From: an uncultured bacterium
GTDB lineage: Bacteria > UBA8481
Reading direction: 5' to 3'
Assembly (NCBI GenBank): GCA_964499705.1
Contig: CAZCME010000011.1
Span: forward strand, 1 to 64,000
Length of the DNA stretch: 64,000 bases
The position numbers and the translations under genes are program-made. Below the pieces are notes generated by a model. The model was not told the origin of the DNA and searched no databases. It saw only the letters and a list, made by a program, of their open reading frames with translations. Of the stretch, positions 3,639 to 63,311 are shown one piece after another (within the stretch, counting starts at the first letter, position 1; the number at the start of each line of letters is the position of its first letter).

Positions 3639-4949
3639 ATGTTCGATACCAAGAAGCTCGCTGCGGCTGCGGAACGGGAGCGCGAGAATTGCGCCCGGTT
3701 TCTCCGCGACATCTGCCGGATTCCCGCCACGTCCAACCAGGAAGGCCCCGTCGTGGAACGCGTCAAACAAGAAATGAAGAAGGTCGGCTTCGACGAGATC
3801 CGGATCGACGGTTACGGCAACATTCTCGGCCGCATCGGAAACGGCAAGCGCGTCATCGCTTTCGATTCGCACCTGGACACGGTGGGCGTGGGGGACCGCG
3901 CGGAGTGGAAGCACGATCCCCACGTGGGCAAGCGCGTCACGATGGACATGAGCAAGTATTCCGATGCTCTTCCCGCGGATGCGACCTCCAAGGGCCCGCG
4001 CGACGTCATCTGGGCGCGCGGCGCCTCCGATCAGCGAGGCGGCATCGCGGCGATGGTCTATGCGGGCAAGCTCATCAAGCAGCTCGGCCTCGCCGCCGAC
4101 TGCACGATCTGGATGGTCGGCTCCATCTGCGAGGAAGACTCCGACGGCATCGCCTGGCTGTACATCCTGAAGAAGAAGGTTATCAATCCCGAGGTCGTCG
4201 TCGTTTCCGAACCCACCAATCTCAATATCTACCGCGGACATCGCGGGCGAATGGAGATCAAGGCGAAGATCACGGGCGTCTCCTGCCACGCATCCGCGCC
4301 GGAACGCGGCGTCAATCCCGTCTATCGCGCCGTTCCGTTCATCAAGGAGATCGAGAAGCTGCACACGCAGTTGAAGGGCGACAAGTTCCTCGGCAAGGGA
4401 ACGATCGCGGTGACGAAGATCCAGGAGGAGACACCGTCGCAATGCGCGGTGCCGGCTTCCGTGGAACTGCATCTCGACAGGCGGCTGGAAGTGACGGCCT
4501 CCAAGGAATCGGCCGTCGCGGAAGTGAAGGCCGCCATGAAGCGCGCCGGCATCAAGGACGGCAAGGTCTGGGTGCCCGTGTACAAGGTTCCATCGTGGAA
4601 AGGCACCGTCTTCCCGATGGAGAATTACTATCCCGGCTGGTGCCTGGAACCGGATCACTCGCTCGTGAAGATATCCGAGGAGACGCACAAGGCCGCCTTC
4701 AACAACAAGAAGGGCAAGGTCTCGCGATGGGTCTTCTCCACGAACGCCACGACCATCACCGGCATCTGCGGCGTTCCGGCGATCGGTTTCGGGCCGGGCG
4801 CGGAAGATAATGCGCACATGGCGATCGAGCACATGGCGGTCGACCACCTCATCGCCGCGATGAAATTCTACGCGGCGTTTCCGACGAAATACTCCGAGGC
4901 GGGCGGATTAAAGCCTGCCGACCGCAAGTATAAACCGAAGAGAAAGTAA
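3639..4949 (+). CDS. ygeY: YgeY-family M20 metallo-amidohydrolase
   Basis: DSHLDTVG, RGASDQRGG, EEDSDG, SEPT, RGHRGRMEI, FSTN motifs; SD AGGAGG; adjacent to ygeW. Confidence 0.88.
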   Translation: MFDTKKLAAAAERERENCARFLRDICRIPATSNQEGPVVERVKQEMKKVGFDEIRIDGYGNILGRIGNGKRVIAFDSHLDTVGVGDRAEWKHDPHVGKRVTMDMSKYSDALPADATSKGPRDVIWARGASDQRGGIAAMVYAGKLIKQLGLAADCTIWMVGSICEEDSDGIAWLYILKKKVINPEVVVVSEPTNLNIYRGHRGRMEIKAKITGVSCHASAPERGVNPVYRAVPFIKEIEKLHTQLKGDKFLGKGTIAVTKIQEETPSQCAVPASVELHLDRRLEVTASKESAVAEVKAAMKRAGIKDGKVWVPVYKVPSWKGTVFPMENYYPGWCLEPDHSLVKISEETHKAAFNNKKGKVSRWVFSTNATTITGICGVPAIGFGPGAEDNAHMAIEHMAVDHLIAAMKFYAAFPTKYSEAGGLKPADRKYKPKRK

Positions 4950-4960
4950 GGAGACCACTC

Positions 4961-6151
4961 ATGAGCAAACACTGCAAGAAGCTTTCCCATCTTGAAGACC
5001 TGGAATCGAATCTCTATGGCAGCGATTTTCTCCTGACGTCCGAGAAGACGAACGCGGAACTGGAGCTCGTGCTGGGGGCCGCCGACATGCTGAAGGCGAT
5101 GCACCAGCAGAATATCTCCAGCCGCGTCTTCGACACCGGCCTGGCCATCTCCATTTTCCGCGACCAGTCCACCCGCACCCGCTTCTCGTTCGCGTCGGCG
5201 ACGAGCCTGCTCGGGCTTGCCCACCAGGAATTCGAGGAAGGCAAATCGCAGGTCGCTCACGGCGAAACGGTCCGCGAGACGGCGAACATGATCTCCTTCC
5301 TTTCGGAGACCATCGGCATCCGCGACGACATGTTCATCGGCAAGGGAAACACCTACATGCGCGAAGTCGGCGCCGCCATGGATGACGGTTTCCGTAACGG
5401 CGTCCTCCACCAGCGCCCCGCGATCGTCAATCTCCAGTGCGACATCGATCATCCGACGCAGGCGATGGCCGACCTGGCCGCGCTGAAAGCTCATTTCGGC
5501 GGCTCCCTCGAAAATCTCCGCGGCAAGAAGATCGCCATGACATGGGCATACTCACCTTCCTACGGAAAGCCGCTCTCCGTCCCGCAGGGCATCATCACCC
5601 TGATGACCCGCTACGGCATGGATGTGTCTCTCGCCTATCCGAAGGGCTACGATCTGCTCCCCGATACGATCGAGGTCTCCAAGAAGCACGCGAAAGCGTC
5701 CGGCGGAAAGTTCTCCATCTCCAATTCGATGGAGGACGCCTTCAAGGACGCCGACATCGTCTACCCGAAATCGTGGGCGCCTTTTGCCGCGATGGAGAAG
5801 CGCACGAAGCTCGTGGAGACCCACGACCAGGACGGCATCAAGACCCTGGAAAAGGAGCTGCTGGCGAATAACGCCAAGTTCAAGAGCTGGGAATGCGACG
5901 AGAAGAAGATGAAGCTGACGAAGAAGGGCGAGGCTCTGTACATGCACTGCCTCCCCGCCGACATCACCGACGTCTCCTGCAAGGAAGGCGAAGTGAGCGC
6001 GAAGGTCTTCGAGAAATACCGGATCCCGACGTACATCGAGGCGAGCTACAAGCCGTTCGTCATCGCGGCGATGATCCTGACCTCGCGCTTCCGCGACCCC
6101 ATCGGAGTGCTGGACCGACTGCAGAGGCAGGGCACGCGCCGGAGGTATTAG
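4961..6151 (+). CDS. ygeW: Knotted carbamoyltransferase YgeW
   Basis: FRDQSTRTRFS, NLQCDIDHPTQ, WAYSPSYGKPLSVPQG, YMHCLPAD. Confidence 0.93.
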   Translation: MSKHCKKLSHLEDLESNLYGSDFLLTSEKTNAELELVLGAADMLKAMHQQNISSRVFDTGLAISIFRDQSTRTRFSFASATSLLGLAHQEFEEGKSQVAHGETVRETANMISFLSETIGIRDDMFIGKGNTYMREVGAAMDDGFRNGVLHQRPAIVNLQCDIDHPTQAMADLAALKAHFGGSLENLRGKKIAMTWAYSPSYGKPLSVPQGIITLMTRYGMDVSLAYPKGYDLLPDTIEVSKKHAKASGGKFSISNSMEDAFKDADIVYPKSWAPFAAMEKRTKLVETHDQDGIKTLEKELLANNAKFKSWECDEKKMKLTKKGEALYMHCLPADITDVSCKEGEVSAKVFEKYRIPTYIEASYKPFVIAAMILTSRFRDPIGVLDRLQRQGTRRRY

Positions 6152-41058: not shown

Positions 41059-42519
41059 TCAGCAGGATTCGCGGAGCTGCCCGCCGATCGAAAGCGCCAG
41101 GCCTCCAAACAGCAGAAGCGTCCAGGGGAGCATCGGCCAGCTGAGAGCGAAGGCCGCCCGCAGGAGCCAGGCGCCGTACAGAAGGAACGCCGCTTCCGCC
41201 ACAATGAACGGATCCATCTTCAGCGTATAGGAGGCGCTCAATCCGTCTCCGCGCTTGGGAGTCCTCACGAACGGAGAATCCCGCATGAGAAATCCTTCCG
41301 TCACGGCGCGCGTGGCGTTGACGACATTTCCGGCCCCGACGACAAGCAGGGCCGCGAACCGTCTCAGCAAGTCCGCAAGGCCTCTTCCCGGTCGTTCCTC
41401 CCATTCCGAAGCCGCATGAAAAACGAAGACGAGGCACGTCGTCGCAAGCAACGACATCGCGTAAAAACTCCGCAACGCCCTGAAATCGCCTCCGGCGTAG
41501 AGCAGCGGCATGAGGAGAAGAAACGAGAAGAGCGTCATGGGATATGTCAGGGGCGCAAGCAGATGCGCGCAGGCCTCGATCTTGACGCGCGGCGGAAGAG
41601 GCGCGAGGAGAAGGGACGGGAGAAGTTTCCGCGCGACCTGAGCCATCCCCTTCATCCATCGGAACTGCTGAGCCTTGTATGAGCGCATCGTCGGAGGAAG
41701 CTCCGAATCGCACGCGATGTCATCGCGATACACGAACTTCCAGCCGCGAAGCTGCGCTCGATAGGAGAGATCGAGGTCTTCCGTGAGCGTGTCTCCCTGC
41801 CATCCTCCCGCGTCACGGATTGTCTCCGCGCGCCAGATCCCGGCCGTCCCGTTGAAGTTGAAGAAACAGCCGGATCGGTATCTCGCCTGGTGCTCGATCC
41901 TGAAATGCGCGCGCAGCGAGAGAGCCTGCGCCTCGGTCAGGAAGGAATCGCGCTCGTTCAGAAAAGTCCACCTCGCCTGGACCATGCCGGTCATGGGGTC
42001 CGCGAAATGCAGCACCGTCCGGCGCAGAAAATCGGCGGGCGGAAGAAAATCCGAATCGAAGATCGCGATGAATTCTCCTCGGGCCCGGGCGAGGCCGTTC
42101 GCCAGGGCGCCCGCCTTGAAATTCGCGCGGTCCGCCCGCCGGATGCAGCGGATGTCGACGCCGGTCTCGCGCAACCGGGCCGCCGTTTGCTCCGCCAGCC
42201 CGGTCGTGCCGTCCGTGGAATCGTCGAGCACCTGGATCTCGAACCGGTCGCGGGGCCAATCCATCGAAGCGGCCGCCGTGAGCAATCGCTCGACCACGGC
42301 GAGCTCGTTGTACAGCGGAAGCTGGATCGTGACGCACGGAATTTCGTCAAGCGCTGCGATTCCGCGGATCTCGACCTTCGGATTCAGGATGTTCCCTCCA
42401 TGCCAGACGAATAAGAGCACGGCGCGATGCAGCCCATAGCAGATGAAGCCCAGGGACAGGATCCCCAGCAGGAGGCTCAGCAGCACGACGATGATCCCGC
42501 GGCCGTCGGGGAACAGCAT
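41059..42519 (-). CDS. Processive GT2, cellulose synthase-like (glucomannan synthase type)
   Basis: QLPLYNE, DDSTD, KAGAL, FDSDF, FNGTAG, TED, QQFRW. Confidence 0.92.
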   Translation of the reverse strand: MLFPDGRGIIVVLLSLLLGILSLGFICYGLHRAVLLFVWHGGNILNPKVEIRGIAALDEIPCVTIQLPLYNELAVVERLLTAAASMDWPRDRFEIQVLDDSTDGTTGLAEQTAARLRETGVDIRCIRRADRANFKAGALANGLARARGEFIAIFDSDFLPPADFLRRTVLHFADPMTGMVQARWTFLNERDSFLTEAQALSLRAHFRIEHQARYRSGCFFNFNGTAGIWRAETIRDAGGWQGDTLTEDLDLSYRAQLRGWKFVYRDDIACDSELPPTMRSYKAQQFRWMKGMAQVARKLLPSLLLAPLPPRVKIEACAHLLAPLTYPMTLFSFLLLMPLLYAGGDFRALRSFYAMSLLATTCLVFVFHAASEWEERPGRGLADLLRRFAALLVVGAGNVVNATRAVTEGFLMRDSPFVRTPKRGDGLSASYTLKMDPFIVAEAAFLLYGAWLLRAAFALSWPMLPWTLLLFGGLALSIGGQLRESC

Positions 42520-45023
42520 TCGAATGTCTCGTCATTCGCTCCGGGAGCGATGATCCTGAACATGCCCTTGTAGGGCGCCACAGCCAGTTTGGCGGCGGTG
42601 TCCGTGCAGACCTCCACCGGAACTCCGCGCGGAAACCAATGCCCTTCCTCGTCCGAAATCCCCTTGAACGGACCGAGATAGACGGCTTTTTGTCCCTGGA
42701 ATACACAACCGGCGGACTTCGCATACTTGTAGCCGCGCAGCGTGACGGAGAAGAACCTGTAACCCTCCACGTCCTTCCAGAAGCTGCGCTTCAGAATCTG
42801 CACGCCGTAGAATCCTGTTCGCTCGGTAAGGGCAAGCAGTTCATCCTCGGTCAGGGCGCCGCTGATGCATTCGCCCCAGAGCCGGGGATCGCGTCGCTGC
42901 CACGGCGGAACCTCCGCGTCGGACACGATATCGGAGATGACCATCCGGCCGTGATTGCGGAGGACGCGCCAGATCTCCGAGAAAACCTTCGGCTTGTCGG
43001 GCGACAGGTTGATGACGCAGTTGGATGTCACGACGTCGACGGATCGATCGTCGAGCGGCACTTTCTCCAGGAATCCCTTGTGAAATTCCACGATGTCGTA
43101 TCCGAGGTTCGCGGAGACGACCTTCTTCTGCTCATGGGCGACCGCGAGCATCCTGTCGGTCATGTCGACTCCGATCGCTCGTCCCGTCGGCCCCGTCTTC
43201 TTCGCGGCGATGAAGACATCGATGCCGGCTCCGGAGCCGAGATCGAGCGTCACTTCGCCGGGCTTGATCCGCGCATCGCCGACGGGCGAACCGCATCCGT
43301 AGAAGCGGTCGACGACATCCTTCGGGATATGCGCGAGATCGGCGGGATCGGGGCGGACGGGGCAGCAGAGGTCTTCCTTCGGCTTCTCCGCGGCATCGCC
43401 GTAGAACTCCCGGACCAGCTTGCGGGGCGCATCGAGGTCGAACGAGAGGACGCACTCGGAACGCGTCGTGCGGACGCGCTCGGAATCCTCTCCGGCCGCC
43501 ACGGATTCGCTCGCGCAATGAACCGCTCCCTCCCCCATGCCCGTCAGGACGACCGGCGAGCCGAATCCGGTGTCGCGCCGCAGCAGAGCCGCGCGCGAAG
43601 ACGTCAGATCGAGGAGCGCGTCGCGGATCATCGCCTTGTGCAATTCGCAATAGGGATCGTGATCGGCCAGGGAATCCAGCGATCGGGAAGGCGCATAGAA
43701 GTACGCGTGCTCGATATCTCCTCCGCCGCAGAGAAATCTGATCGAGCAATCGGGACAGTGCGGCTTCTTCGCCAGGGTCATTCCGCGAAACGCGCGCGTC
43801 ACTTCGCTCTCCCGCCAGATCGTCTCGAGCGATTGCTCCAGGATCGATCCGCAGCAAAGCTCGGGAATCTGGACCATCGCGGCGGACGGATAGATCCGGC
43901 CGTCGCTGTAAAGGCAGAGCGTATTGACGCCGGCGCCGGAGAGATCGGTCTTCGTTCCCGGCCATCCTCGCATCCGCGCCTTCATCGCCTCGTGATTATC
44001 GACGATCACGCCGTGGGCGGCGCCCGCCTGTCTAGCGCGGCGAACGGCGGCGATCAGCGCGTCGTTGTCCGGCGTCGCATCCACGGGCTGATGGCCGTTG
44101 AGAGATGCGCGCCCCTTGCGGTGCATCCAGAGCAGATGATGGCTCCGGCCGCCGCACTCCCCGACAAGCCGCGTGATATCGGAGAGTTCCTCCACGTTGG
44201 ATTTCGTCACGACCGTGCTGACCGTGATGTCGAGACCCGCGGTGACGGCCGCGCGAATTCCTTCGACGATGCGCGCAAAACTCCCCTCTCCACGGATCGG
44301 ATCGTTCGTCTCCGGACGCGCGCCGTCCAGGCTCACCTGGAATCTCAGGCGAGGAATGCCCGCGTCGACCGCGCTCCGCGAGCGCATTTCGCCGAGCAAC
44401 TCGCCCTTGAACTGCAATCCGTTCGTCAGGATGGCCAGTTCCGCGTCCTGATCGACAAGCACTGCATCGACCAGGTCGAGAATATCCTTCCGGATGAGAG
44501 GTTCACCGCCCGTGAAGAAGAAACGCGTCGCGCCCAGGGCGCGCGCGTCCCGGATCGCGGAGATGATCCTGGCCGCGGAGAGCCCCCGGTCGCCGTCCGG
44601 ACCCGATGAGACGAGACAGTGCGTGCAGGCGAGGTTGCAGGAATTATTCGTATGGATCCAGAAATCCCGCAGCGGTTCCTGCGAGAGCGCCGACTGCCGA
44701 CCTGTGTAGGCGGGCCCCTGAGCGGATTCCACCCCAAGAAATTTATACCGGACCGCGTCACCCGTTATGGTGGCAACATCCTGCATCGCCCGCGTGAGTT
44801 CGAGTCCATGCCGGTCCGCGTGTTCGAACGCGGTGTCCTGGATGGACCGGGATCCGTCGAAGGAGTCCAGGATCGCCAGTCCCGCGTCGTCGATGCCGAT
44901 CCAGTTCGGCATGTCCGGATTCAGGAGGACATGCAGGCCTTCGCCGCTGATAAGCTCGTTAGGAGCGATTACAGGCCCGGATCCTGGATGAGGGCTCTTG
45001 CTGTTTCTGACGGGATCGGACAT
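42477..45023 (-). CDS. PqqD-like + radical SAM/SPASM + arsenite methyltransferase (ArsM)-like fusion
   Basis: [45 protein letters not shown]-terminal CC pairs. Confidence 0.85.
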
Positions 45024-45128
45024 GGGTCGATATTTTATCCCACGTTCATCGAACCACAAACAATTCCCTTGAGAGATCTGTAACCAGTAATTGAGGGCGA
45101 TGGATTTCGCATGCTGAAATCCAATTCG

Positions 45129-49236: not shown

Positions 49237-51795
49237 TTATCTCTTCCGCAGGAGAAGCGCGGTGGCCGGAAGGAGAAATGGCCGGACCAGCAGGGTATCC
49301 ACGAGGACTCCCGCGGTGACGCCCAGGCCCACCTGCTGCAGGAAGGCGACGCGCGACAAGGCCAGCGCCGCGAATGTGCCGGCCAGGACAAGTCCGCACG
49401 ATGAAACGACGGGACCCGTGACCTCCAGCGCTTTCGCCAGTCCCGCTTCGAAATCCGAGTGCGCCGCTTCCACGCGCGCGCGTCCGAGGAGAAAGATTCC
49501 GTAGTCGGCGCCGATGGCGACGAGGAGCACGAAGAGGAAGAACGGCGTCTTCCAGTCCACGCCCGGCCAGATTCCCCATCGCGCGCAGACAGACAGCACA
49601 CCTAGAGCGGCAAAATAGGACGCGAGAAGATAGACCGTCACGGCGGCCGGCAAGGCGAATCCTCCCAGGAGTAGAACGAGAAGGATGAAGACACCCGCCA
49701 CGACAAGGATTCCCACGAGGCGAAGATCCTGGGTTGTGATCGCTTCGAGATCCGCCGTGATCGGCGTCGGTCCGCCGACGAAAGCTGTCGCGCCCGCCAG
49801 ATCATGGATCTCGAACCAGAGAGGAAACCGGGCATGCAGATCGCTCAAGGTCTTCACCGCCTCCGGTGAGTTGGGTGACGCCTCGAGTTCCACTTCAAAG
49901 AGCGCGGCCTCCCCGCCTTCGGATACGAAATGATCCATGACGCGCGCGAGTTCCGGAATCGCGTCATAGTCGTCCACGGAAAGGGCGAGGCGATCGAGCG
50001 CTTTCGCCGCCTCGGGGGAATTCAACATGATCTTCAGGCGGTCCGCTCCACGGTCGAGTCCTTCCGCCAAAGCCTGCGCCCCTTCCTCCCCGCGGGCCAG
50101 GCCCAATTCCAATTTCCGCATGTCCGACGCGAATCCGTCCAGATCACGCCGCGCATCGTCAAAGCGGCGACCGGCCAGCAGAGCGGCCAGCGAGCCGCGC
50201 CTGTCCTTCTCAAGCGCGGCCTTTTTTTCCTCGATCTCCCGTCCGCCGCGCACAACCTCATGGCGCGCTTCTCCCAATCCCTTTCCCAGCGCGTGCGCGC
50301 CATGAACGGCCTTTCGGAGTCCCGCCTCGATCTCGACCATCTGGCTCCGGATCGTTCCCCTTTCGAAAAGCCCCGCCGCTCCCGTCGGCCGCGTCGCGCT
50401 GTGAACGACCGCCACGCCGGGCGTCACCGCCAATCGTTCCGTGAATTGATGAAGCGCGCTCAATCCCTCCGGTCCACGCCAGCCATCCGGCAATGTTCCG
50501 CTCTTCGCCGGAATCCGGATCATGACGGCCAGCGGTCCCGCGGATGAAAGCGAAAAGTGGCGCTGAAGCGCGGCGTAGCCGGCTTCGGACGGGCTCGCGA
50601 CAGGAATATCAATCTCGTTCTCGAACGTCGGACGGGAGGATGTTCCCAGATAAAGAACAGGAGACAGCGAAAGCGCGACAACGATGAGCATGAGAAGCGG
50701 ATGAGCGAGAACGAGGCGGGCGATGCCGGGCCAGAGCCATCCACGCCGGGCATTTTCGGGGCGGGACGGCCAGAAGAGGTGCGAGCCCAGGAGGCGCATC
50801 AACGCCGGCGCAAGCGTGAGTGTCGCAACCAGTGCCGTTGCGACGCCGATCGCGAGCGCGGCGCCGGAGAAGCGGAAGAGCCCGAATTGCGCGAACTCCA
50901 TGAGCCCGCACGCGACGCCGACGGCGAACGCGCTCCCCACGATGACATGGAGCGAACCTCGCCACGCAGCGCCGATCGGATCTTTCGATCCCGCCGCGGC
51001 TTCCTCTCTCGCGCGCGCGAAGAGAAGAAGGCAGTAGTCCGTGCCGACACCGTACACGATCGCGACGAGAAAGGAGCGCGCCTGGTACGCCACGGAGAGA
51101 CCCAGGGATGCCGCCAGAGTTACAAGGCCGAACGTCGCGCCGAGCGCGGCGCCGAGCGTGAGAATCGAAACGCCGGCAGCCACCGGCGAACGATAGACGA
51201 CGAGAAGAATCACGATGACGAGGAAAATCGTCGCCCACGCGGATCGCGCTCCGCCTTCATCGATCGCGCGATCGTAATCGCGGCCCAGGGTGGCGTCGCC
51301 GGACAGGAATATCCGGAATCCTTTCTCGCCCGCCTCCTTTGCCAGTCGCTCCACCTCATCGACAACGCGCGCTCCTTCTTCGGACGCGAAGCCCACGGAC
51401 AGCTGGACCAGGACGAGTGCGGCACGGCTGTCGGACGCGACGAGGCGATGTTCGAGGATGGGATTGTCCGTCGGAGCGAGCACAGCGGAAACCAGCGAGG
51501 TGGATTGGAGATGGCGCAGGAGGTCAGCAAGCCCGGCAATCCGATCGCGCGCGGTCGACATATCCGAGTCGGACTCGATCACGAGGACGATCTGCGAAAG
51601 AGGAGACGCTCCCGGAAAGAGTTTCTCGATCTCTTCACGGGCGATCCGATGCGGAGAATCCGGCGGGAAGAAGGAACCGGGATCCGTCACCGCGACTTCA
51701 TGCAGATGCGGAATGCATGCGAATCCCGCGATCGCGCCGACGATCCAGGCTGCGACGACGATGATCGACGCGGCGCGCGCTCTCATCAGCGACAT
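49237..51795 (-). CDS. MMPL family transporter
   Basis: YGVGTDYCL and VAIGADYGIFL motifs, GVLVDTLLVR, coiled-coil insert. Confidence 0.9.
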   Translation of the reverse strand: MSLMRARAASIIVVAAWIVGAIAGFACIPHLHEVAVTDPGSFFPPDSPHRIAREEIEKLFPGASPLSQIVLVIESDSDMSTARDRIAGLADLLRHLQSTSLVSAVLAPTDNPILEHRLVASDSRAALVLVQLSVGFASEEGARVVDEVERLAKEAGEKGFRIFLSGDATLGRDYDRAIDEGGARSAWATIFLVIVILLVVYRSPVAAGVSILTLGAALGATFGLVTLAASLGLSVAYQARSFLVAIVYGVGTDYCLLLFARAREEAAAGSKDPIGAAWRGSLHVIVGSAFAVGVACGLMEFAQFGLFRFSGAALAIGVATALVATLTLAPALMRLLGSHLFWPSRPENARRGWLWPGIARLVLAHPLLMLIVVALSLSPVLYLGTSSRPTFENEIDIPVASPSEAGYAALQRHFSLSSAGPLAVMIRIPAKSGTLPDGWRGPEGLSALHQFTERLAVTPGVAVVHSATRPTGAAGLFERGTIRSQMVEIEAGLRKAVHGAHALGKGLGEARHEVVRGGREIEEKKAALEKDRRGSLAALLAGRRFDDARRDLDGFASDMRKLELGLARGEEGAQALAEGLDRGADRLKIMLNSPEAAKALDRLALSVDDYDAIPELARVMDHFVSEGGEAALFEVELEASPNSPEAVKTLSDLHARFPLWFEIHDLAGATAFVGGPTPITADLEAITTQDLRLVGILVVAGVFILLVLLLGGFALPAAVTVYLLASYFAALGVLSVCARWGIWPGVDWKTPFFLFVLLVAIGADYGIFLLGRARVEAAHSDFEAGLAKALEVTGPVVSSCGLVLAGTFAALALSRVAFLQQVGLGVTAGVLVDTLLVRPFLLPATALLLRKR

Positions 51796-51896
51796 GTCTC
51801 ACATCCGGCGGAGACCGAATGAATCTCAACTCTTCCTCTTGAGGTCGCTCCTTCTTCGAAGCACAATGAATGCGGCATGATGATTACGTCCCGACC

Positions 51897-53069
51897 ATGA
51901 ACAGCGGAATCCTGCGCATCGGCAAATGGCTCTTTCTCGCCCTGATTCTCGCGATCACGTCTGGCGCCGTCGTCCTGGAGTGGATGGACAACACGATCGA
52001 GGCGCCGGGCTTCATCGCGGGCAGCCTGCTGCTCGCGGTCACGGTCCTCTACTACACGCAGAAGGGAAGAAAGGCGGCCGTCGTCATCTTCTCGCTGGCG
52101 GGATTCCTGATCGCGGCGCACATGCTGGTCGCCTTTTCCGGCCAGGGCGACTCCGCGCTCTATTCCGTCTACTTCATTCCCATCCTGATCGCCGCCGGTC
52201 GATTCGGCCTCGCGGGTTCGTCCGTGACGGGAATCATCGTGACCATCCTGTACGCCACGTTTTTCCTGCACGCCACGGAGCAGGAGATCCAGGCGGAGCT
52301 TCTCGAGGAAACCATCACGCTGATGTTCATCGCGCTCCTCTCCGGTTATCTCGTCGACCGACTGAAGGATGAAGAACAGCGGAGGTTCGCCGCGGAACGA
52401 CAGGAGCGGGATCGCGAGCGGCTGGCCGAGATCGGGCTCCTCGCCGCCCAGGTCGCCCACGAATTCCGCAATCCGCTCCAGGTGATCGAAGGATCCGCGG
52501 AGACGCTGGCCGCGCGGGGCTGGGTGGCCGAGGCGGGGAGAATTCTCCTGGCCGACCTGAAGGAGCAGGCCCGACGCATGTCGATTCTCGCCGCGGATTT
52601 TCTCGCGTATGGAAAACCCGTGCTCCGCGCGAGAACTTTCGTAAATCTTCACGGTCTGGTGGACCAGGCCGCGATCGGCGTGGGCGCCGTCGTCGTGAAG
52701 AACATGGTCGCGGAATCCCTTGGTACCGACGCCGATCCCGATGCCCTGGAGCGCGTCTTCCGCAACCTGTTCACTAACGCGCGGAAATCTTCCGCGACGC
52801 GCGTCACGGTCTCATGCTCCGCGTCAGGCGGTGAACTCGTCGTCCGTGTCAGCGACGACGGAACCGGCATTCCGGAGGATCTTGCTCCGCAGCTCTTCCA
52901 GCCCTTCCGCACCGGCCGTCCCGGTGGTGTCGGGCTGGGGCTCGCCATCGCGCGCCGTATCGTCGAAGCGCATGACGGGCGGATCGGGATCGCGGCGACG
53001 TCTCCTTCAGGAACCACGATGCAGATCGTTTTTCCCTCGCGCCTGTCTTCACACGGGTCGGCATCATGA
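51897..53069 (+). CDS. Membrane sensor histidine kinase
   Basis: 5 TM; AHEFRNPL, NLFTNA, DDGTGI, GVGLGL. Confidence 0.92.
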   Translation: MNSGILRIGKWLFLALILAITSGAVVLEWMDNTIEAPGFIAGSLLLAVTVLYYTQKGRKAAVVIFSLAGFLIAAHMLVAFSGQGDSALYSVYFIPILIAAGRFGLAGSSVTGIIVTILYATFFLHATEQEIQAELLEETITLMFIALLSGYLVDRLKDEEQRRFAAERQERDRERLAEIGLLAAQVAHEFRNPLQVIEGSAETLAARGWVAEAGRILLADLKEQARRMSILAADFLAYGKPVLRARTFVNLHGLVDQAAIGVGAVVVKNMVAESLGTDADPDALERVFRNLFTNARKSSATRVTVSCSASGGELVVRVSDDGTGIPEDLAPQLFQPFRTGRPGGVGLGLAIARRIVEAHDGRIGIAATSPSGTTMQIVFPSRLSSHGSAS

Positions 53070-54439
53070 GCCACGAGTCCTCGTATGCGACATCCATCCT
53101 CCTCGTGGATGACGAAGCGCCCATCCGGCGTCTCCTCGAAACCCAGGTGAACGATCTCGCCCGTGTCCTCACCGCCGGCTCCGCCGAAGCGGCATGGGAG
53201 ATTCTGCGGCGCACAGACATCGACGTCATCGTGACCGATTTCCGGATGCCGGGCATCGACGGGCTCCAGTTCCTCCAGCGCGTCCGGGACTGGGACAAGG
53301 AGGTGCCCGTCATCGTCGTGACGGCGTTCGGAACGATCGAAACCGCCGTGGAGGCGATGCGCGCGGGCGCCTTCGACTTTCTCACCAAGCCCGTGGAGAT
53401 GAAAATATTCCGCCAGACCGTGGAGCGCGCTCTCGCCTTCAGGCGGCTTCGCGAGGAAAACCGTTATCTCCGCGAACGGCTCGGCGAGGAGGACATGCCG
53501 GAGTTCATCGGGACATCGGCGGAGAGCCTCGACGTAAAGAGAAAAATGCGGGAGGCGGCGCCGAGCAGCGCGACTGTGCTCCTGACCGGAGAGAGCGGAA
53601 CGGGAAAGACGATCGTCGCTCGCACGATTCACGCGCTCTCCAACCGCCCGGGACTCTTCGTCCGGATCAACTGCGCCGCCCTGCCGGAAGCGCTTCTCGA
53701 GAGCGAGCTCTTCGGCCATGTGCGCGGCGCCTTCACCGGCGCCCACCAGAACCGCAAGGGAAAGTTCCTGCTCGCGGACAAGGGCACGCTCTTTCTCGAC
53801 GAGATCGGAACGCTCTCCCTCCCCCTGCAGGCCAAGCTCCTTCACGTCCTGGAGGAAGGCGAATTCTCGCCCGTCGGGGCCGACGTGAGCCTGCGGTCGT
53901 CGGCGCGCATCATCGCCGCGACGAACGAGAATCTCGACGACGCCGTGAAGACGCGGCGGTTCCGGTCCGATCTCTTCTGGAGATTGAACGTTCTCATGAT
54001 CCCGATTCCGCCCCTGCGCGTGCGACGCGAGGACATTCCGCTGCTCGCCCATCACCTTCTCGCCCGCTTGAACGCGGGACGAACCGTGTCTCTTTCCGCG
54101 GAAGCCATGGCCGCTCTGACGGCGCAAGCCTGGCCCGGCAACGTGCGCGAATTGCAGAACGTCCTGCAGCGCGCCCTCGCGCGGTACCACGGCGAGGAGA
54201 TGCTCCCCGCGGAGGCCTTCGACGAGACGATGTGGGAAGCGCGCGATACGCTTTCCCTGAAGGAATCGCTCGCGCGCGTCGAGCGGGCGCTCATCGCCGA
54301 GGCGCTCCGGCGGACGAAAGGGCACAAGACCGCCGCGGCCGAACTGCTCGGGCTCACGCCGCGCATGGTCTCCTACTACCTCGACAAGTATCCCGATCTC
54401 ATGGACGCGGTCGACGCGGAACGGAAAACCAGGGATTAA
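53066..54439 (+). CDS. NtrC-family sigma54-dependent response regulator
   Basis: LLVDDE..TDFRMP..TKP receiver; GESGTGK, ESELFGH, GAFTGA, WPGNVREL; Fis HTH. Confidence 0.95.
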   Translation: MSHESSYATSILLVDDEAPIRRLLETQVNDLARVLTAGSAEAAWEILRRTDIDVIVTDFRMPGIDGLQFLQRVRDWDKEVPVIVVTAFGTIETAVEAMRAGAFDFLTKPVEMKIFRQTVERALAFRRLREENRYLRERLGEEDMPEFIGTSAESLDVKRKMREAAPSSATVLLTGESGTGKTIVARTIHALSNRPGLFVRINCAALPEALLESELFGHVRGAFTGAHQNRKGKFLLADKGTLFLDEIGTLSLPLQAKLLHVLEEGEFSPVGADVSLRSSARIIAATNENLDDAVKTRRFRSDLFWRLNVLMIPIPPLRVRREDIPLLAHHLLARLNAGRTVSLSAEAMAALTAQAWPGNVRELQNVLQRALARYHGEEMLPAEAFDETMWEARDTLSLKESLARVERALIAEALRRTKGHKTAAAELLGLTPRMVSYYLDKYPDLMDAVDAERKTRD

Positions 54440-55602
54440 GTCGCTTCCCACAGTTGTCCCGTGACCAGTCCCTCATCCACTTTTTCGACGCGTGAGGCGA
54501 GCGTGCGGGGGAAGCTGACGGCGCGCGCCGCCCAGTGCGAGCAGAGATCGCACCGGAAACATTTTCCGGGCAGACATCCCCCTTTCCTGAAGACGAGATC
54601 GAGGTAGCCGTCCAGGGATCGATTATCGATCCGGATCTGATCCTCGATGTCGAACGCCGGGCGGGCGGCGCGCGCCAGGCCCAGCAGCCTGCGCCAGCCT
54701 CCGCGCATCACGGCGGCGAAGCCTGTCGCGGCGTCGATATGCACCGGCCCGCGCCGCATCAGGTCCATCAGGTTTCCGTCATATCGTCGTTCCGCATATG
54801 CGCGCGTTCGCGCGACAAGATCTTTCGTGGAACATCCCCGCCCCGCGATCTTGAAGTGGCGATACCCGAAGGCCTCGTAGCGCGGAAGATCCTCGGGGCG
54901 GATCCAGTCCTGCATGAGAAGCCGCGACGGATCCTTCAGGAATCCCGTGTGGCACTGGAAATAGCAGGCGTCCGGAGCCGGCGTCTTGCGCCGCGACGCG
55001 GCGCCGAGATCGGCGGCGTGGCAGGGCGCCCAGGCGCAACCGAGCTCGCAACGATTATTCACGAGGAGTTCCAGTTCGCCGCGGCCCGCCATCGCCCGCA
55101 TGATCGCGTTCAGCCGGTCGGGATCGCGGTTCACGAGCATCGAGTCCAGGACGATCCGGTGCGCGCCCTCGTCGAACCATGCGCGCGCCTTCCGTTCGTC
55201 ATCGACCCGCGAAAACACGCTGACACGCACCTTCAATTTCGTGTGGCGGACGATGACGCGGAGAAAGAGCGGCGACACGACGGTCACCCATTCCACGCCG
55301 CACTCGGAGATGCGATCGAGGAGCTTCCTCAGGCGGCGGTAACCTTCCGGCGTCGCGATGTCGCCCGTTCCTCCGTCCGCGGCGTTCAGGAGGTAATCGA
55401 ACGCGATCCCCTTCGACCGCGCATGCTCCACGTGCTTCCGGAACCGGTGCCATCCGATCTTTGGCACGAGAAATCGCGGGCGGCCTCCCCCGAAACCGTC
55501 ACCCTCGATCTTCCCGTAGATCTGGGACACGGGTAGATCGGCGACGCCGTCGATCAGTTCATCCTCGAAACTTGTCGCGAGCGAAAACGCGGATCCGGTC
55601 AT
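54436..55602 (-). CDS. U32 'peptidase' family Fe-S protein
   Basis: GGGR, YLLNA, ELLVNNRCELGC..CH, CYFQC, WIRPEDL, FKIAGR, C-terminal CxxxCxxCxxC. Confidence 0.85.
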   Translation of the reverse strand: MTGSAFSLATSFEDELIDGVADLPVSQIYGKIEGDGFGGGRPRFLVPKIGWHRFRKHVEHARSKGIAFDYLLNAADGGTGDIATPEGYRRLRKLLDRISECGVEWVTVVSPLFLRVIVRHTKLKVRVSVFSRVDDERKARAWFDEGAHRIVLDSMLVNRDPDRLNAIMRAMAGRGELELLVNNRCELGCAWAPCHAADLGAASRRKTPAPDACYFQCHTGFLKDPSRLLMQDWIRPEDLPRYEAFGYRHFKIAGRGCSTKDLVARTRAYAERRYDGNLMDLMRRGPVHIDAATGFAAVMRGGWRRLLGLARAARPAFDIEDQIRIDNRSLDGYLDLVFRKGGCLPGKCFRCDLCSHWAARAVSFPRTLASRVEKVDEGLVTGQLWEAT

Positions 55603-55603
55603 G

Positions 55604-56674
55604 TCAGATTCCTTTCCAGCGGCAGACCGCGAAGTCCATGGAGAATCCCGGGCCCACGGCCAGAATCCCCGCCGTCTCGCCGAATGGGGCCGAGGCCCGA
55701 TTCGACCAGTATTTTTCCAGGACGAAATAGATGGTGGCGGAGGAAAGATTCCCGACGCGGCGAAGGACGCCGCGACTCTCTTCGAGCCCGCCATGCGGTA
55801 TGCCCAGTGCTTCCTCCATTGCGTTCAGGATCTTCGCTCCGCCGGGATGCACAAGCCACCGGATCGCGCCCAGGGATGGAACGGAACTCAGGAGCGACTT
55901 CACCGTGGGCACGAGTTCCTCGCGGATGAAGGCGGGAATTCGCGGAGACAGGAAGATGTGGAAACCTGTCTCACGGAGATCGAATCCCATGAAGTCGAGG
56001 GTGTTCCGGAAGAAGTGCGATCCCGTGGATTCGATGCGGAGCCCGGAGACCGGCTTGCCGGTCACGAGAGCGCCTGCGGCTCCATCGCCGAAGATCGCCG
56101 TGGAGATGACATGCGCGCCGTCGAAATCCGTCGGCTGAAACGTAAGCGTCGTCAGTTCAACGGCCAACAGGAGCACGGTCGAATCGGGAAAAGCCCGGAT
56201 GTGATCGTGGGCCATCCGGAGAGATGCGACTCCGGCCGCGCACCCCAGTTCCGTCACGGGCAACCGCTTGATGTCCGAACGGAATCCGAAACGATTGATG
56301 AGATACGCGTCCACGGCGGGGATCATGAATCCCGTGCAGGAAGTCGTTATGATGAGATCGACGTCCTCGATGCGCAGCGGACTTCTCTCGAAAAGCCTGA
56401 CCACGACTTCCTCGGATAGCCGGCGCGCCGTTTCCATGTAGGTCTGATTCTTCTTCCGGAGCGCGGGATCTTCCATCAGCTCCTCGATGGGAATCGAACT
56501 GTACCGCGTCTCGACTCCCGCGTTGTCGTAGGCGCGCCGCGCCGTGGCCAGCGGGATCGGAGCACCGCTGTCGGGAGCCTTGAGATACCATCGTTCCAGG
56601 AGCCGCTTCGCGCGTTCCTGCGTGAAAAGATTGGACGGCAGCGCCGTGGCCACGCCCGCGATCGTGGCCGTCAT
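55604..56674 (-). CDS. Type III polyketide synthase
   Basis: ELGCAAG (Cys), VHPGG (His), GNLSS (Asn), FGDGAAG, GPGF. Confidence 0.93.
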   Translation of the reverse strand: MTATIAGVATALPSNLFTQERAKRLLERWYLKAPDSGAPIPLATARRAYDNAGVETRYSSIPIEELMEDPALRKKNQTYMETARRLSEEVVVRLFERSPLRIEDVDLIITTSCTGFMIPAVDAYLINRFGFRSDIKRLPVTELGCAAGVASLRMAHDHIRAFPDSTVLLLAVELTTLTFQPTDFDGAHVISTAIFGDGAAGALVTGKPVSGLRIESTGSHFFRNTLDFMGFDLRETGFHIFLSPRIPAFIREELVPTVKSLLSSVPSLGAIRWLVHPGGAKILNAMEEALGIPHGGLEESRGVLRRVGNLSSATIYFVLEKYWSNRASAPFGETAGILAVGPGFSMDFAVCRWKGI

Positions 56675-57267
56675 GACGCCACCCTGTTCTTTCCCCGCAC
56701 CGTGAATGTGATCTTCACGTCATCGGAGACCTTGAAGAAAAGAAATCCCGGAGGCTCCATGCCGAAATCCGTGATCTTCACCCGCGCGGTTCCCGTCACG
56801 GCAAGATCGGACCCCGCGAAACCCGCCATGATCTCCACCGGAACCCGGCGTGTCGTCCCGTGCACTGTCAGATCTCCCGACGCCGTCGCCGTGAAGGTGT
56901 CGGAGCCCGTCCATCGCGGCGCCTTGAGTTCGCGCAGCTTGAAGACAATCTCCGACTTCTCATCGCCGCCGAAGATCTTGTACATCTCGTTGTCGCGCGC
57001 GCTGATGCCGGTCTTCAATGTGCGGATCGGAATCCGCGCCTCGCCGAACGCGGTCTCCGCGACCTTCTGCCGGTCGCAGCCGAACTCACCCTTCACAACC
57101 GCGGTCTTCCCCTCGAAATCGTGGCCCGTGGAATGCGCGTGAAACACGAGCGAATTCCTCGCGCCGGTCATGTCATATTTCTGCACGGCCCCCGACGCGG
57201 CCACGGCCAGGAGAAGCGTCAATCCCGCAAGCCAACCCATGTTTCTTCTGATATTCCAGATCATCAT
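56671..57267 (-). CDS. YceI-family periplasmic lipid/polyprenyl-binding protein
   Basis: Signal peptide; HDFEG, LKTGISARD, GDLTVHGTTR, TDFGMEPP. Confidence 0.88.
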   Translation of the reverse strand: MMIWNIRRNMGWLAGLTLLLAVAASGAVQKYDMTGARNSLVFHAHSTGHDFEGKTAVVKGEFGCDRQKVAETAFGEARIPIRTLKTGISARDNEMYKIFGGDEKSEIVFKLRELKAPRWTGSDTFTATASGDLTVHGTTRRVPVEIMAGFAGSDLAVTGTARVKITDFGMEPPGFLFFKVSDDVKITFTVRGKNRVAS

Positions 57268-57434: not shown

Positions 57435-57571
57435 ATTAACAGGATGAGCAGGATAGGCAGGATCGATTCAGGGTAGAAAAGAAGGTAATGTAGTCCTGTA
57501 ATCGGGGAAGAGTTTTCTTTTTGCTCTTCTTTCTTTTTTCACATCCTGCCCATCCTGCCCATCCTGTTAAT
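57435..57571. repeat. Nonamer-unit (CAGGATRRG) inverted repeat, 29-bp arms, 79-nt spacer
   Basis: ATTAACAGGATGAGCAGGATAGGCAGGAT vs reverse complement of 57543-57571, 2 mismatches. Confidence 0.88.
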
Positions 57572-61481: not shown

Positions 61482-63311
61482 CTACACCCTCACCCGCATC
61501 AGGTTCTGCTCGCGCGAGACGCCCTTCAGCGTGGCGGCGAACATGTCGGTCCGAGCATTCCGCGCGGCCAGCAGGGAGGCGATCTCGGGATCTCCATACA
61601 GGTTCTCCGACAGAATGATGTCGTCTCCCGACGATTCGCCGTGCAGTCGCGCGGCGACATTGACGGTGCGGCCGAAATAGTCGAGCCGGTCGTTGGAGTT
61701 CACGGCGATCACCGGGCCGCGGTGCGCGCCGAGCTTCAACGAGATCGCCTCGACCATGTTTTCGCGAGCGTTGAATTCCATCACCTTCGACTGGATGTCG
61801 AGACAGGTCGCGACGGCGGAGCGGCCTGAAGCGAAGACGGCCATGACGGAATCCCCGATCGTCTTGACGATGGCTCCATTGTGTGACCGGATCCGTTCCT
61901 CGAGAAATGCGAAATGCTGCCGAACAAGGGCGTAGGCGCGGGCGTCGCCGACTTTTTCGTACAGCTCGGTCGAGGACTTGAGATCGGAGAAGACGATCGC
62001 CAGGGAGCGGATGGAGAGATCGTTCTCCGGAGCCAGGACTTCCGCGTCGAAGAGATCGCGGAAATCCTGCAGCGCCGTCACCATGGCCGCCGACGCGGCT
62101 TTTTCTCCCCAGTCTTCCTCCTCCAGGATGAACAGCATTTCCGTGCCGCATTCATTCGTCACCTGAAGATCGATGCGTTCGCCCGTGAAGAGAATCTCGG
62201 CGGGCTGGAATCCGTCGGGCTTCGCCAGCACCGCGTTGCGCCGATTCTCGCTCCCTTCGATCCATTCGATCCGGCCGTAACCTTTGACCTGCGGCGAACG
62301 GATTCGAAACCGGTCGCGCGACAAGGCGACGGATATCTCCCTCGTCTCCCCGGCGGGAATCCGAGCCTGGCAGACGATGTGCCGCGTGTTCGCGGGCCCT
62401 CCGATGCAGTACACCGCATCGAGCGTTTTCCGCATGATCGGGTGGATCGTGAACCGCACCTCCACGGCCTGGTCGAAATCGAGATCGAACTTCATGCCGC
62501 ATGCGTCGCAGGATCCCTCATTCCGGAGATCGCGGAGCGTGGCCACCTCTCCCTTGGCGCCGCGGCAATGCGGGCAGATCGGAACCCATTTCATGTCGAG
62601 TATCCCGACCTGGGTCGCCGCGAGAAATGTCCGCAGCACGTCCATCCGGTTCTCGCCCCATTGGTCCGCAAGAGCGAACGGCCGCATGCGGATCAGGTCG
62701 TCATCCTGCGCCTCCCGGCAATACTCCAGGAATTTTCCGAGAATCCTCTTCTTCAATTCATGATCGATCCGGACGGCGGCCGCGAGAATCGCGTCCTCGT
62801 TCAGATGACTCTTCAGAACGGTCCCCTGGAACGGCTTGCGAACTTTCCCCTTGAGATAATCCTCGATCTGCCGAACACCCCGCGTGAAATCCGACAGCAC
62901 CTTGCGGCCCATGAGGTTCGCGACGACGACACCCATCCCGCCCCGGGGAACGAATCTCCCTTCGATATGCACCCTGGTGCGACCGGCGACCGCGCCTGCC
63001 GCGTCGAGTCTTTCGAGAGCGAAGATCCCGGTCATCTTCGCCAGCGGTCCGCCGACATACTCCCGCTCGACGGAAAATCCTTCATGGCGAACCCATTCGA
63101 AGGGATTTTCGCGCCAGGCGAGAGGGACCGGCCCCATCCGCGCGGATGCCATGCGCGCCGTCGTTCCGTCGGGAAGCGGCACATTTCGATATGTGACGGC
63201 GGGAAGGCCGATCGACCGGTTCATCCGGTCGGTATCGGAGACGTACTCCCAGATCTCCTCGGGAGGAAAATCCACGATGACATCCGTGGCGAAGATGATC
63301 GGATCGGCCAT
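61482..63311 (-). CDS. SRPBCC + DUF5939-like + class III adenylate/guanylate cyclase
   Basis: SDTDRMNR; CPHC..CDAC, CIGGP; FSDLKSST, VKTIGDSVM, DYFGRTVNVAARL. Confidence 0.9.
   Translation of the reverse strand: MADPIIFATDVIVDFPPEEIWEYVSDTDRMNRSIGLPAVTYRNVPLPDGTTARMASARMGPVPLAWRENPFEWVRHEGFSVEREYVGGPLAKMTGIFALERLDAAGAVAGRTRVHIEGRFVPRGGMGVVVANLMGRKVLSDFTRGVRQIEDYLKGKVRKPFQGTVLKSHLNEDAILAAAVRIDHELKKRILGKFLEYCREAQDDDLIRMRPFALADQWGENRMDVLRTFLAATQVGILDMKWVPICPHCRGAKGEVATLRDLRNEGSCDACGMKFDLDFDQAVEVRFTIHPIMRKTLDAVYCIGGPANTRHIVCQARIPAGETREISVALSRDRFRIRSPQVKGYGRIEWIEGSENRRNAVLAKPDGFQPAEILFTGERIDLQVTNECGTEMLFILEEEDWGEKAASAAMVTALQDFRDLFDAEVLAPENDLSIRSLAIVFSDLKSSTELYEKVGDARAYALVRQHFAFLEERIRSHNGAIVKTIGDSVMAVFASGRSAVATCLDIQSKVMEFNARENMVEAISLKLGAHRGPVIAVNSNDRLDYFGRTVNVAARLHGESSGDDIILSENLYGDPEIASLLAARNARTDMFAATLKGVSREQNLMRVRV

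Follow-up and report, generated by a model that had tools for sequence, protein, structure and literature searches.

A Type III Polyketide Synthase–U32 Operon as a Candidate Oxygen-Independent Phenolic-Lipid Pathway in an Uncultured Bacterium

The Operon and Its Three Products

The stretch of DNA analyzed here (the window) comprises positions 1 to 64,000 of contig CAZCME010000011.1 in the assembly GCA_964499705.1 of an uncultured bacterium of the lineage UBA8481. On its minus strand lie three consecutive genes, translationally coupled by the window sequence, which encode a YceI-like protein, a type III polyketide synthase (PKS) and a Cys-rich protein of the U32 family, and which we discuss as a candidate oxygen-independent pathway to a phenolic lipid:

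57267-56671, minus strand: yceI, first gene of the operon, 198 aa, predicted secreted YceI-like lipid-binding protein (PF04264)
56674-55604, minus strand: type III PKS, 356 aa, Chal_sti_synt_N/C domains, Cys145-His276-Asn309
55602-54436, minus strand: U32-like Fe-S protein, 388 aa, partial PF01136 match, candidate O2-independent hydroxylase

The stop codon of yceI and the start of the PKS gene share an ATGA overlap, the U32 ATG follows the PKS stop after a single base, and a Shine-Dalgarno-like AAGGGAG precedes yceI; terminator-like sites in the operon interior are not above chance level. By Pfam and gene content, the operon holds neither a methyltransferase nor a flavoprotein gene. Coordinates, Pfam and motif alignment thus confirm the original prediction in its description of a tightly coupled trio with an intact PKS triad and a Cys-rich U32 protein. 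The arrangement is beyond chance: The same trio is found in two other genera, and PKS–U32 adjacency recurs on unrelated contigs, as evidenced below.

The first gene product carries a full-length YceI domain (PF04264, E 2.2e-18, profile positions 6-148 of 150), and its N-terminus resembles a Sec signal peptide, MMIWNIRRNMGWLAGLTLLLAVAASGA. Against the NCBIfam equivalog of Escherichia coli YceI it reaches 25.5 bits, with a cut-off of 232; because this score is so far under the cut-off, the protein is by sequence a member of the YceI family and no orthologue of E. coli YceI. For the PKS, both domain matches pass their cut-offs (PF00195, E 1.3e-21; PF02797, E 1.6e-17), and motif alignment with 1U0M, CylI and Pks11 places the catalytic residues at C145 (LGCAAG), H276 (VHPGG) and N309 (GNLSSA).

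The longest open reading frame (ORF) for the U32-like protein would start at 55794 and overlap the PKS gene by 190 nt; this start was rejected, as alignments with 23 and later 57 homologues support the ATG at 55602. The resulting protein contains 11 Cys. Its match to PF01136 (27.7 bits, cut-off 22.4) is restricted to residues 90-152 and no NCBIfam model matches it; PF01136 is among the precomputed annotations of most of its homologues. Searched with a profile of 58 family members, the PDB gave 5D88 (E 1.9e-17) as the top match; this is Mk0906 of Methanopyrus kandleri, the sole solved U32 structure to emerge from the sequence and fold searches. An AlphaFold (AF2) model built on the family alignment (pLDDT 93.2, pTM 0.92) also has 5D88 as its top Foldseek hit (E 3.2e-11, TM 0.73 on the target), followed by generic TIM barrels. 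The model thus predicts a U32 TIM-barrel fold for the window protein; by profile, the 5D88 match is confined to residues of about 51-179, the core of the barrel, at 20% identity.

Seven residues are invariant in the 58 sequences (C185, C189, H195, C217, C348, C351 and C354), C343 is nearly so, and C213 occurs in most bacterial members of the subfamily. The protein therefore combines a CX3CX23CX3C motif with an additional C-terminal C-X4-CxxCxxC, the CxxCxxC group of which weakly resembles ferredoxin (E 0.32). A comparison by hhalign with E. coli UbiU gave a probability of 75% (E 2.6e-5) and aligned C185 and C189 with C169 and C176, shown by mutagenesis to be two of the four [4Fe-4S] ligands of UbiU as reported in Pelosi 2019, which gives CX6CX15CX3/4C as the four-Cys [4Fe-4S] motif of most U32 families. 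No match was obtained to UbiV (probability 0.8%). By sequence, the window protein is best placed in a distinct U32 subfamily, remote from UbiU and unmatched to UbiV. Of the earlier assignment to the U32 proteins, the family identity is supported by profile and fold; the suggested nearness to characterized members did not hold in the comparison, which covered UbiU and UbiV.

Conservation of the PKS–U32 Linkage

The window genome (4.67 Mb in 45 contigs, 96% complete) belongs to a phylum with five species genomes in the collection. The U32 gene is found in three of the five, and all three read YceI-PKS-U32, with identities across genera of 60-63% for U32, about 52% for the PKS and 44-55% for YceI. 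YceI orthologues are encoded directly upstream of the PKS in the loci L018, L019 and L139. Five of the ten closest U32 homologues are on contigs equal in size to those of close PKS homologues, suggesting that the two genes share a contig.

A metagenome scan with the family alignment identified 519 U32 relatives, from which the best 80 loci (34-40% identity) were kept. A type III PKS lies within 4 kb of the U32 relative in 28 of these 80 best loci, on the same strand in 27 cases and at no more than 100 nt in 12. Where at least 3 kb are available on both sides, the proportion is 11 of 20 loci, and all five metagenomic PKS genes checked with Pfam are type III PKSs. With MT denoting a UbiE/COQ5-type methyltransferase, SOD a superoxide dismutase and rSAM a radical SAM gene, the gene orders are YceI-PKS-U32-MT; YceI-PKS-MMPL-x-MT-U32; SOD-U32-MT-PKS; U32-MT-PKS; U32-PKS; and MT-U32-KAS-B12 rSAM-PKS. 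Some merged long ORFs of 610-775 aa may be U32-MT fusions. No flavin monooxygenase was found among the recurrent neighbors of U32 relatives by neighbor clustering and Pfam.

A 401-genome sample of another phylum, the one holding L014, contains the U32 family (E <= 1e-40) in 42 genomes. Five of its best 30 loci (1.5-kb flanks) encode a PKS, four in the order YceI-PKS-U32-MT and one as U32-MT-PKS. YceI-like genes upstream of the PKS are also seen in metagenomic loci and in another phylum, and YceI recurs near U32 relatives in 11 of 83 loci by clustering and in 4 of the 30 best-matching loci of the other phylum. A tree built from 83 U32 sequences joins the window clade to a 13-row clade linked to YceI-PKS (SH-aLRT 84), and the PKS-linked U32 genes are spread over several clades; the placement of L041, L045, L057 and L070, with very long branches probably due to ORF trimming, was ignored.

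The original prediction had made its case dependent on the co-localization of type III PKS and U32 genes, and this is conserved in three of the five genomes of the phylum, in 28 of the 80 metagenomic loci and in another phylum. Because the linkage is kept through rearrangement and across phyla, it shows that the PKS and the U32 protein are functionally coupled. It is very improbable that the adjacency is meaningless and that the U32 protein acts apart from the PKS, as a peptidase or in RNA modification. The Pfam family is indeed named "peptidase," some U32 clades have no PKS, and the genome G002 (below) keeps YceI-PKS without U32; however, same-strand adjacency is found in several gene orders in at least two phyla and in metagenomes, the genes are translationally coupled, and the U32 protein resembles UbiU, if remotely.

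A gene of the Fe/Mn superoxide dismutase family (cluster c12; Pfam for L083) was observed directly before U32 in L056, L058, L081 and L083. The full order SOD-U32-MT-PKS is present in L058, L081 and L083, and the L056 locus ends before a PKS could appear. Such neighbors fit a redox-active product.

The operon is flanked by the following features:

57325-57298, minus strand: sigma-70-like promoter match TTGGCG-16-TAGAAT upstream of yceI (consensus match only)
57435-57463 and 57543-57571, no strand assigned: arms of an inverted repeat, possible regulatory site, in the gap between the divergently oriented yceI and AAA-like genes
53066-54439, plus strand: sigma-54 NtrC-type response regulator (Pfam), convergent with the operon, possible regulator
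51870-53069, plus strand: histidine kinase (Pfam), convergent with the operon, possible regulator
49237-51795, minus strand: MMPL-family RND transporter, 852 aa (PF03176, E 1.5e-104), possible lipid exporter

Two promoter-like sites were found in the region, with 0.6 expected. A sigma-54 promoter upstream of yceI was considered and rejected; the GG-N10-GC element agrees with 8 of 12 consensus positions, overlaps the sigma-70-like match and is indistinguishable from chance. The inverted repeat has 29-nt arms, 93% complementary and 79 nt apart, with GGCAGGAT-like units, and an AAA-like protein and UvrD are encoded on the opposite strand upstream of yceI. The convergent U32 and NtrC-type genes overlap at their stop codons in the palindrome TTAA (54436-54439), which leaves no intergenic room for terminators. 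Elsewhere in the window, 61482-63311 (minus strand) encodes a 609-aa protein with SRPBCC (Polyketide_cyc2), DUF5939 and adenylate/guanylate cyclase domains.

The MMPL gene, which had been proposed as a possible exporter, has counterparts inside or beside related clusters. In G003, an orthologue (54% identity) and a B12-binding radical SAM gene lie upstream of the trio on the same strand, and in L024, L026 and L027 a transporter of ~760 aa (cluster c22) is encoded between PKS and U32, with Pfam confirming MMPL for L024. G001 lacks an MMPL gene within 14 kb, and the 17.5-kb locus of G002 yielded none. In neither G003 nor G001 was the histidine kinase–NtrC pair detected next to the trio.

The genome of the sister genus G002 (96% complete, same family as the window genome) encodes YceI-PKS (49% and 48% identity) and, in convergent orientation, the same histidine kinase–NtrC pair (44% and 61% identity). 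It has no U32 gene between them, and the window U32 query detected none elsewhere in the genome. At about 4197-5432 (plus strand) of this locus (L139, G002:C6:40000-57500), within the histidine kinase–NtrC operon, a gene for a FAD_binding_3 flavoprotein overlaps the histidine kinase start; its best scores in NCBIfam, to the monooxygenase QhpG and to the geranylgeranyl-reductase superfamily, stay under the respective cut-offs. Separately, a 697-aa fusion in which a full-length FAD_binding_3 domain (aromatic-ring monooxygenase type) is joined to a SAM methyltransferase domain is encoded at C17:65127-67220 of G000, the window genome (L140:5128-7221, plus strand), unlinked to the operon, and could be an O2-dependent tailoring enzyme. 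Both flavoproteins fit an interchange of flavin and U32 hydroxylases and are also compatible with unrelated functions.

U32 relatives also occur in settings without a PKS. A 17-row clade, with flanks of 3 kb or more to either side in five rows, adjoins squalene-hopene cyclase, polyprenyl synthase and a chorismate mutase–DAHP synthase fusion; this context was noted in L029, L032, L033, L035, L045, L048, L070 and L077 and further in L022, L047, L072, L075 and L092. It may reflect O2-independent modification of hopanoid-type lipids with a local supply of prephenate. The fusion (cluster c8; Pfam for one member) is directly beside the U32 relative in six loci. Prephenate is the product of chorismate mutase, and because it is also the oxygen donor of UbiU/V, these neighbors are a useful lead toward prephenate use. 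In the other phylum, 14 of the 30 best-matching loci adjoin B12 radical SAM genes, none of them with a PKS. A lower-scoring branch (L117, L130, L132 and others of L117-L136) has tandem U32 pairs and/or B12-binding radical SAM neighbors. Thirteen archaeal loci (L001-L013, from metagenome-assembled genomes labeled ANME-2, Methanosarcinales or Nanoarchaeia) encode U32-like proteins of about 350 aa with 30-36% identity; a 128-aa DUF5402 gene follows in all thirteen, and none has a PKS or YceI. As the DUF5402 pairing is uninformative on function, the archaeal relatives were set aside as a functional guide.

Proposed Pathway and Competing Explanations

The aerobic srsABC, pkqABC, hidABC and planctomycetal operons, as described in PMC10896814 and PMC9927152, encode a methyltransferase and a FAD-dependent oxidoreductase alongside the type III PKS, and their products are methylated, hydroxylated alkylresorcinol derivatives and alkylbenzoquinones. 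By analogy, we somewhat favor the interpretation that the window operon is an equivalent of the srsABC/pkqABC/hidABC phenolic-lipid pathways that works without oxygen, with the U32 protein in the role of the flavin hydroxylase. The type III PKS would build an aromatic polyketide, most likely a long-chain alkylresorcinol-type ring from a fatty-acyl starter and malonyl-CoA. The U32-like protein would then add a ring hydroxyl without O2, with prephenate as the oxygen donor by analogy with UbiU/UbiV, and in the place of the flavin monooxygenase (SrsC/PkqC/HidB) would give a hydroxyquinol- or benzoquinone-type head group. Its two conserved Cys groups may together stand in for the [4Fe-4S] cluster pair of UbiU-UbiV, the C-terminal group being a possible second cluster in one polypeptide, whereas UbiU-UbiV has one per subunit. 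Once made, the lipid would be bound in the periplasm by the secreted YceI, with the neighboring MMPL transporter as its possible exporter. The product might carry electrons, act as an antioxidant or belong to the envelope lipids. A more ambitious version seems to us doubtful: A U32 enzyme of one subunit and two clusters would draw on prephenate to make polyketide hydroquinone or quinone lipids without O2 in several phyla, and MMPL and YceI would deliver these to the periplasm or outer membrane as extracytoplasmic redox lipids, serving as electron shuttle or antioxidant.

Since the operon has no methyltransferase, the product would be either unmethylated or methylated by an unlinked enzyme; the best UbiE-like gene of the window genome is unlinked to the operon. 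Within the window, 42477-45059 (minus strand) encodes, beside glycosyltransferase genes, an 860-aa protein that joins radical SAM and SPASM domains to a UbiE-like methyltransferase domain. It was rejected as the missing methyltransferase, matching those of the clusters weakly (33% over 123 aa), and an 860-aa ORF beside the G002 cluster proved to be no counterpart of it, being unrelated and SpoU-type.

The window genome encodes three homologues of the COX1 family (heme-copper oxidases), two MqnA/D homologues of the futalosine menaquinone pathway, three UbiA-family proteins and one chorismate mutase (CM_2) gene; no cytochrome bd was found in it. The organism therefore probably respires O2 or NO and makes menaquinone. 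Judged by the heme-copper oxidases and MqnA/D in its genome, the host is no obligate anaerobe and not reliant on this lipid as its sole quinone. A U32-dependent route would accordingly be expected to widen the range of O2 tensions, as UbiUVT does in E. coli, and not to serve a strict anaerobe.

The nature of the PKS product bears on a second explanation. The closest solved structures are tetrahydroxynaphthalene (THN) synthase (THNS) 1U0M (E 1.1e-61, 211.8 bits), CylI (E 2.6e-47) and Pks11 (E 1e-46), and these nearest solved relatives yield differing products. The PKS might thus be THN-synthase-like and use malonyl-CoA only, with the U32 protein carrying out an O2-free conversion of the naphthalene polyol to a flaviolin-type hydroxynaphthoquinone; the product would then be a small pigment or shuttle and no long-chain phenolic lipid. 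That its best solved relative is the Streptomyces coelicolor enzyme, ahead of CylI and Pks11, agrees with this, as do the active-site Cys of the "SCTGF" motif, which is shared with THNS, the aromatic Phe231 aligned at the position of THNS Tyr224, and an identity of just 26-31% to the PKSs of other U32-linked clusters. We nevertheless consider it distinctly improbable. The lipid-handling partners, YceI in the operon and MMPL beside it, argue for a long-chain product; close homologues are annotated "alkylresorcinol/alkylpyrone synthase," if by automatic names; the window PKS has GNLSSA where THNS has GNIASA; and three residues ahead of its catalytic His stands a Trp, shared with CylI and Pks11, where THNS has Tyr. 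As a marker of resorcinol synthesis this Trp was dropped, being present in Pks11 and another PKS, with its mapping to ArsB W281 unconfirmed.

A 230-aa ORF at C3:10763-11425 (minus strand) of G000, equivalent to L020:6734-7426, corresponds to the N-terminal half of a type III PKS and is 51% identical to residues 1-215 of the window PKS. No C-terminal half was found nearby, and the ORF is probably a remnant paralogue.

A third explanation accepts that the U32 protein is tied to the PKS and assigns it other chemistry, such as reductive dehydroxylation, ring reduction, oxidative coupling or a role as electron-transfer partner, so that no hydroxylated quinone precursor would be made. The linkage evidence speaks for functional coupling only and leaves the reaction unspecified, direct hydroxylase activity has been demonstrated for no U32 protein according to PMC10990095, and the U32 relatives adjoin radical SAM enzymes and squalene-hopene cyclase. 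The C-terminal CxxCxxC, weakly ferredoxin-like, is moreover absent from the characterized U32 proteins as described in Pelosi 2019. Against this stand the genetic ties of all three characterized U32 systems to O2-independent hydroxylation of (hetero)aromatic rings, as reported in PMC10990095 and Pelosi 2019, the position of U32, which is that of the hydroxylase in the aerobic PKS-MT-oxidoreductase operons, and the chorismate mutase genes adjoining U32 relatives. We regard other chemistry as unlikely, while giving it more weight than a THN-type product.

Several observations weigh against an oxygen-independent hydroxylation pathway in the window. The U32 subfamily, judged by sequence, is remote from UbiU, unmatched to UbiV and without an NCBIfam model, and PMC10990095 reports no U32 protein as yet shown to hydroxylate in vitro. 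The family is not PKS-specific, as its squalene-hopene cyclase, radical SAM and DUF5402 contexts are all without a PKS, and G002 shows that YceI-PKS can persist without U32. The G002 flavoprotein is under the curated cut-offs and appears from sequence equally like geranylgeranyl reductases. The product class is not fixed by the sequence comparisons, with THN synthase as the nearest solved structure and low identity to the linked PKSs; the operon is without a methyltransferase and the best UbiE-like gene is elsewhere; and, given the three COX1-family genes and MqnA/D, neither an O2-free route nor a new quinone is compelled.

U32 proteins are thought to be widespread O2-independent, prephenate-dependent hydroxylases, with ubiquinone precursors, tRNA and rRNA as the three known substrates and most subfamilies uncharacterized, as summarized in PMC10990095. 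The conserved pairing with a PKS would extend their range to secondary and lipid metabolism. If the proposed hydroxylation is true, it would explain how phenolic-lipid quinones, made by aerobes with flavin monooxygenases, can be formed at low or zero O2. It could also allow a first in vitro assay of a U32 hydroxylase, alkylresorcinol-type substrates being small and available. With one PKS and one U32 protein, the system is compact enough for a direct test of hydroxylation in E. coli.

Comparison with Known Systems

The srsABC operon of Streptomyces griseus and the pkqABC operon of Mycobacterium smegmatis and Streptomyces likewise have a type III PKS in an operon with tailoring enzymes (PMC9927152), and the same source reports that actinobacteria short of oxygen use polyketide quinones as alternative carriers of electrons. 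Relatives of the window cluster resemble them further in usually having a UbiE-like methyltransferase in the same operon. Their hydroxylase is an O2-dependent oxidoreductase, whereas a U32 Fe-S protein is in that place here; the window operon moreover has no methyltransferase, adds a secreted YceI and a neighboring MMPL gene, and has a resorcinol product that is only predicted. The hidABC operon of picocyanobacteria and the operon of the Planctomycetota are also three-gene phenolic-lipid operons, the latter accounting for 58 of 96 planctomycetal PKS genes in the account of PMC10896814. The operon of "Saltatorellus ferox" described there adds genes for a lipoprotein and a lipid/isoprenoid-binding protein, in parallel to YceI. 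The hidABC and planctomycetal operons differ in their FAD-dependent oxidoreductase and gene order, and U32 goes unmentioned in PMC10896814. With a PKS and neither a methyltransferase nor a flavoprotein gene, the window operon is no member of the srsABC/pkqABC/hidABC type; by analogy it would work like these operons, as a minimal form without methyltransferase. The full-text literature yielded no link of a type III PKS to U32 or to YceI, supplementary gene tables being outside the search.

The closest functional parallel for the U32 protein would be UbiU-UbiV-UbiT of E. coli, described in PMC10990095 and Pelosi 2019 as U32 Fe-S proteins required for O2-independent ring hydroxylation of a lipidic quinone precursor, with UbiT as lipid-binding accessory; prephenate is the oxygen donor of the UbiU/V-dependent reaction (PMC10990095). 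The window system is not of this type, having a single U32 copy in its genome and no SCP2 gene in the operon. UbiU-UbiV is a heterodimeric pair, whereas the window has one U32 gene with an extra C-terminal four-Cys group; the Cys spacing is CX3CX23CX3C in the window and CX6CX16CX38C in UbiU; the carrier would be a secreted YceI in place of a cytoplasmic SCP2 protein; and the substrate would be a polyketide in place of a prenylphenol. Our survey adds a methyltransferase-less YceI-PKS-U32 form, a sister genus without U32, and U32 contexts with chorismate mutase and of hopanoid type. In ubiquinone synthesis, UbiU/V replace UbiI/H/F. A U32 protein standing in the place of the flavoprotein, as suggested for the window operon, mirrors that replacement.

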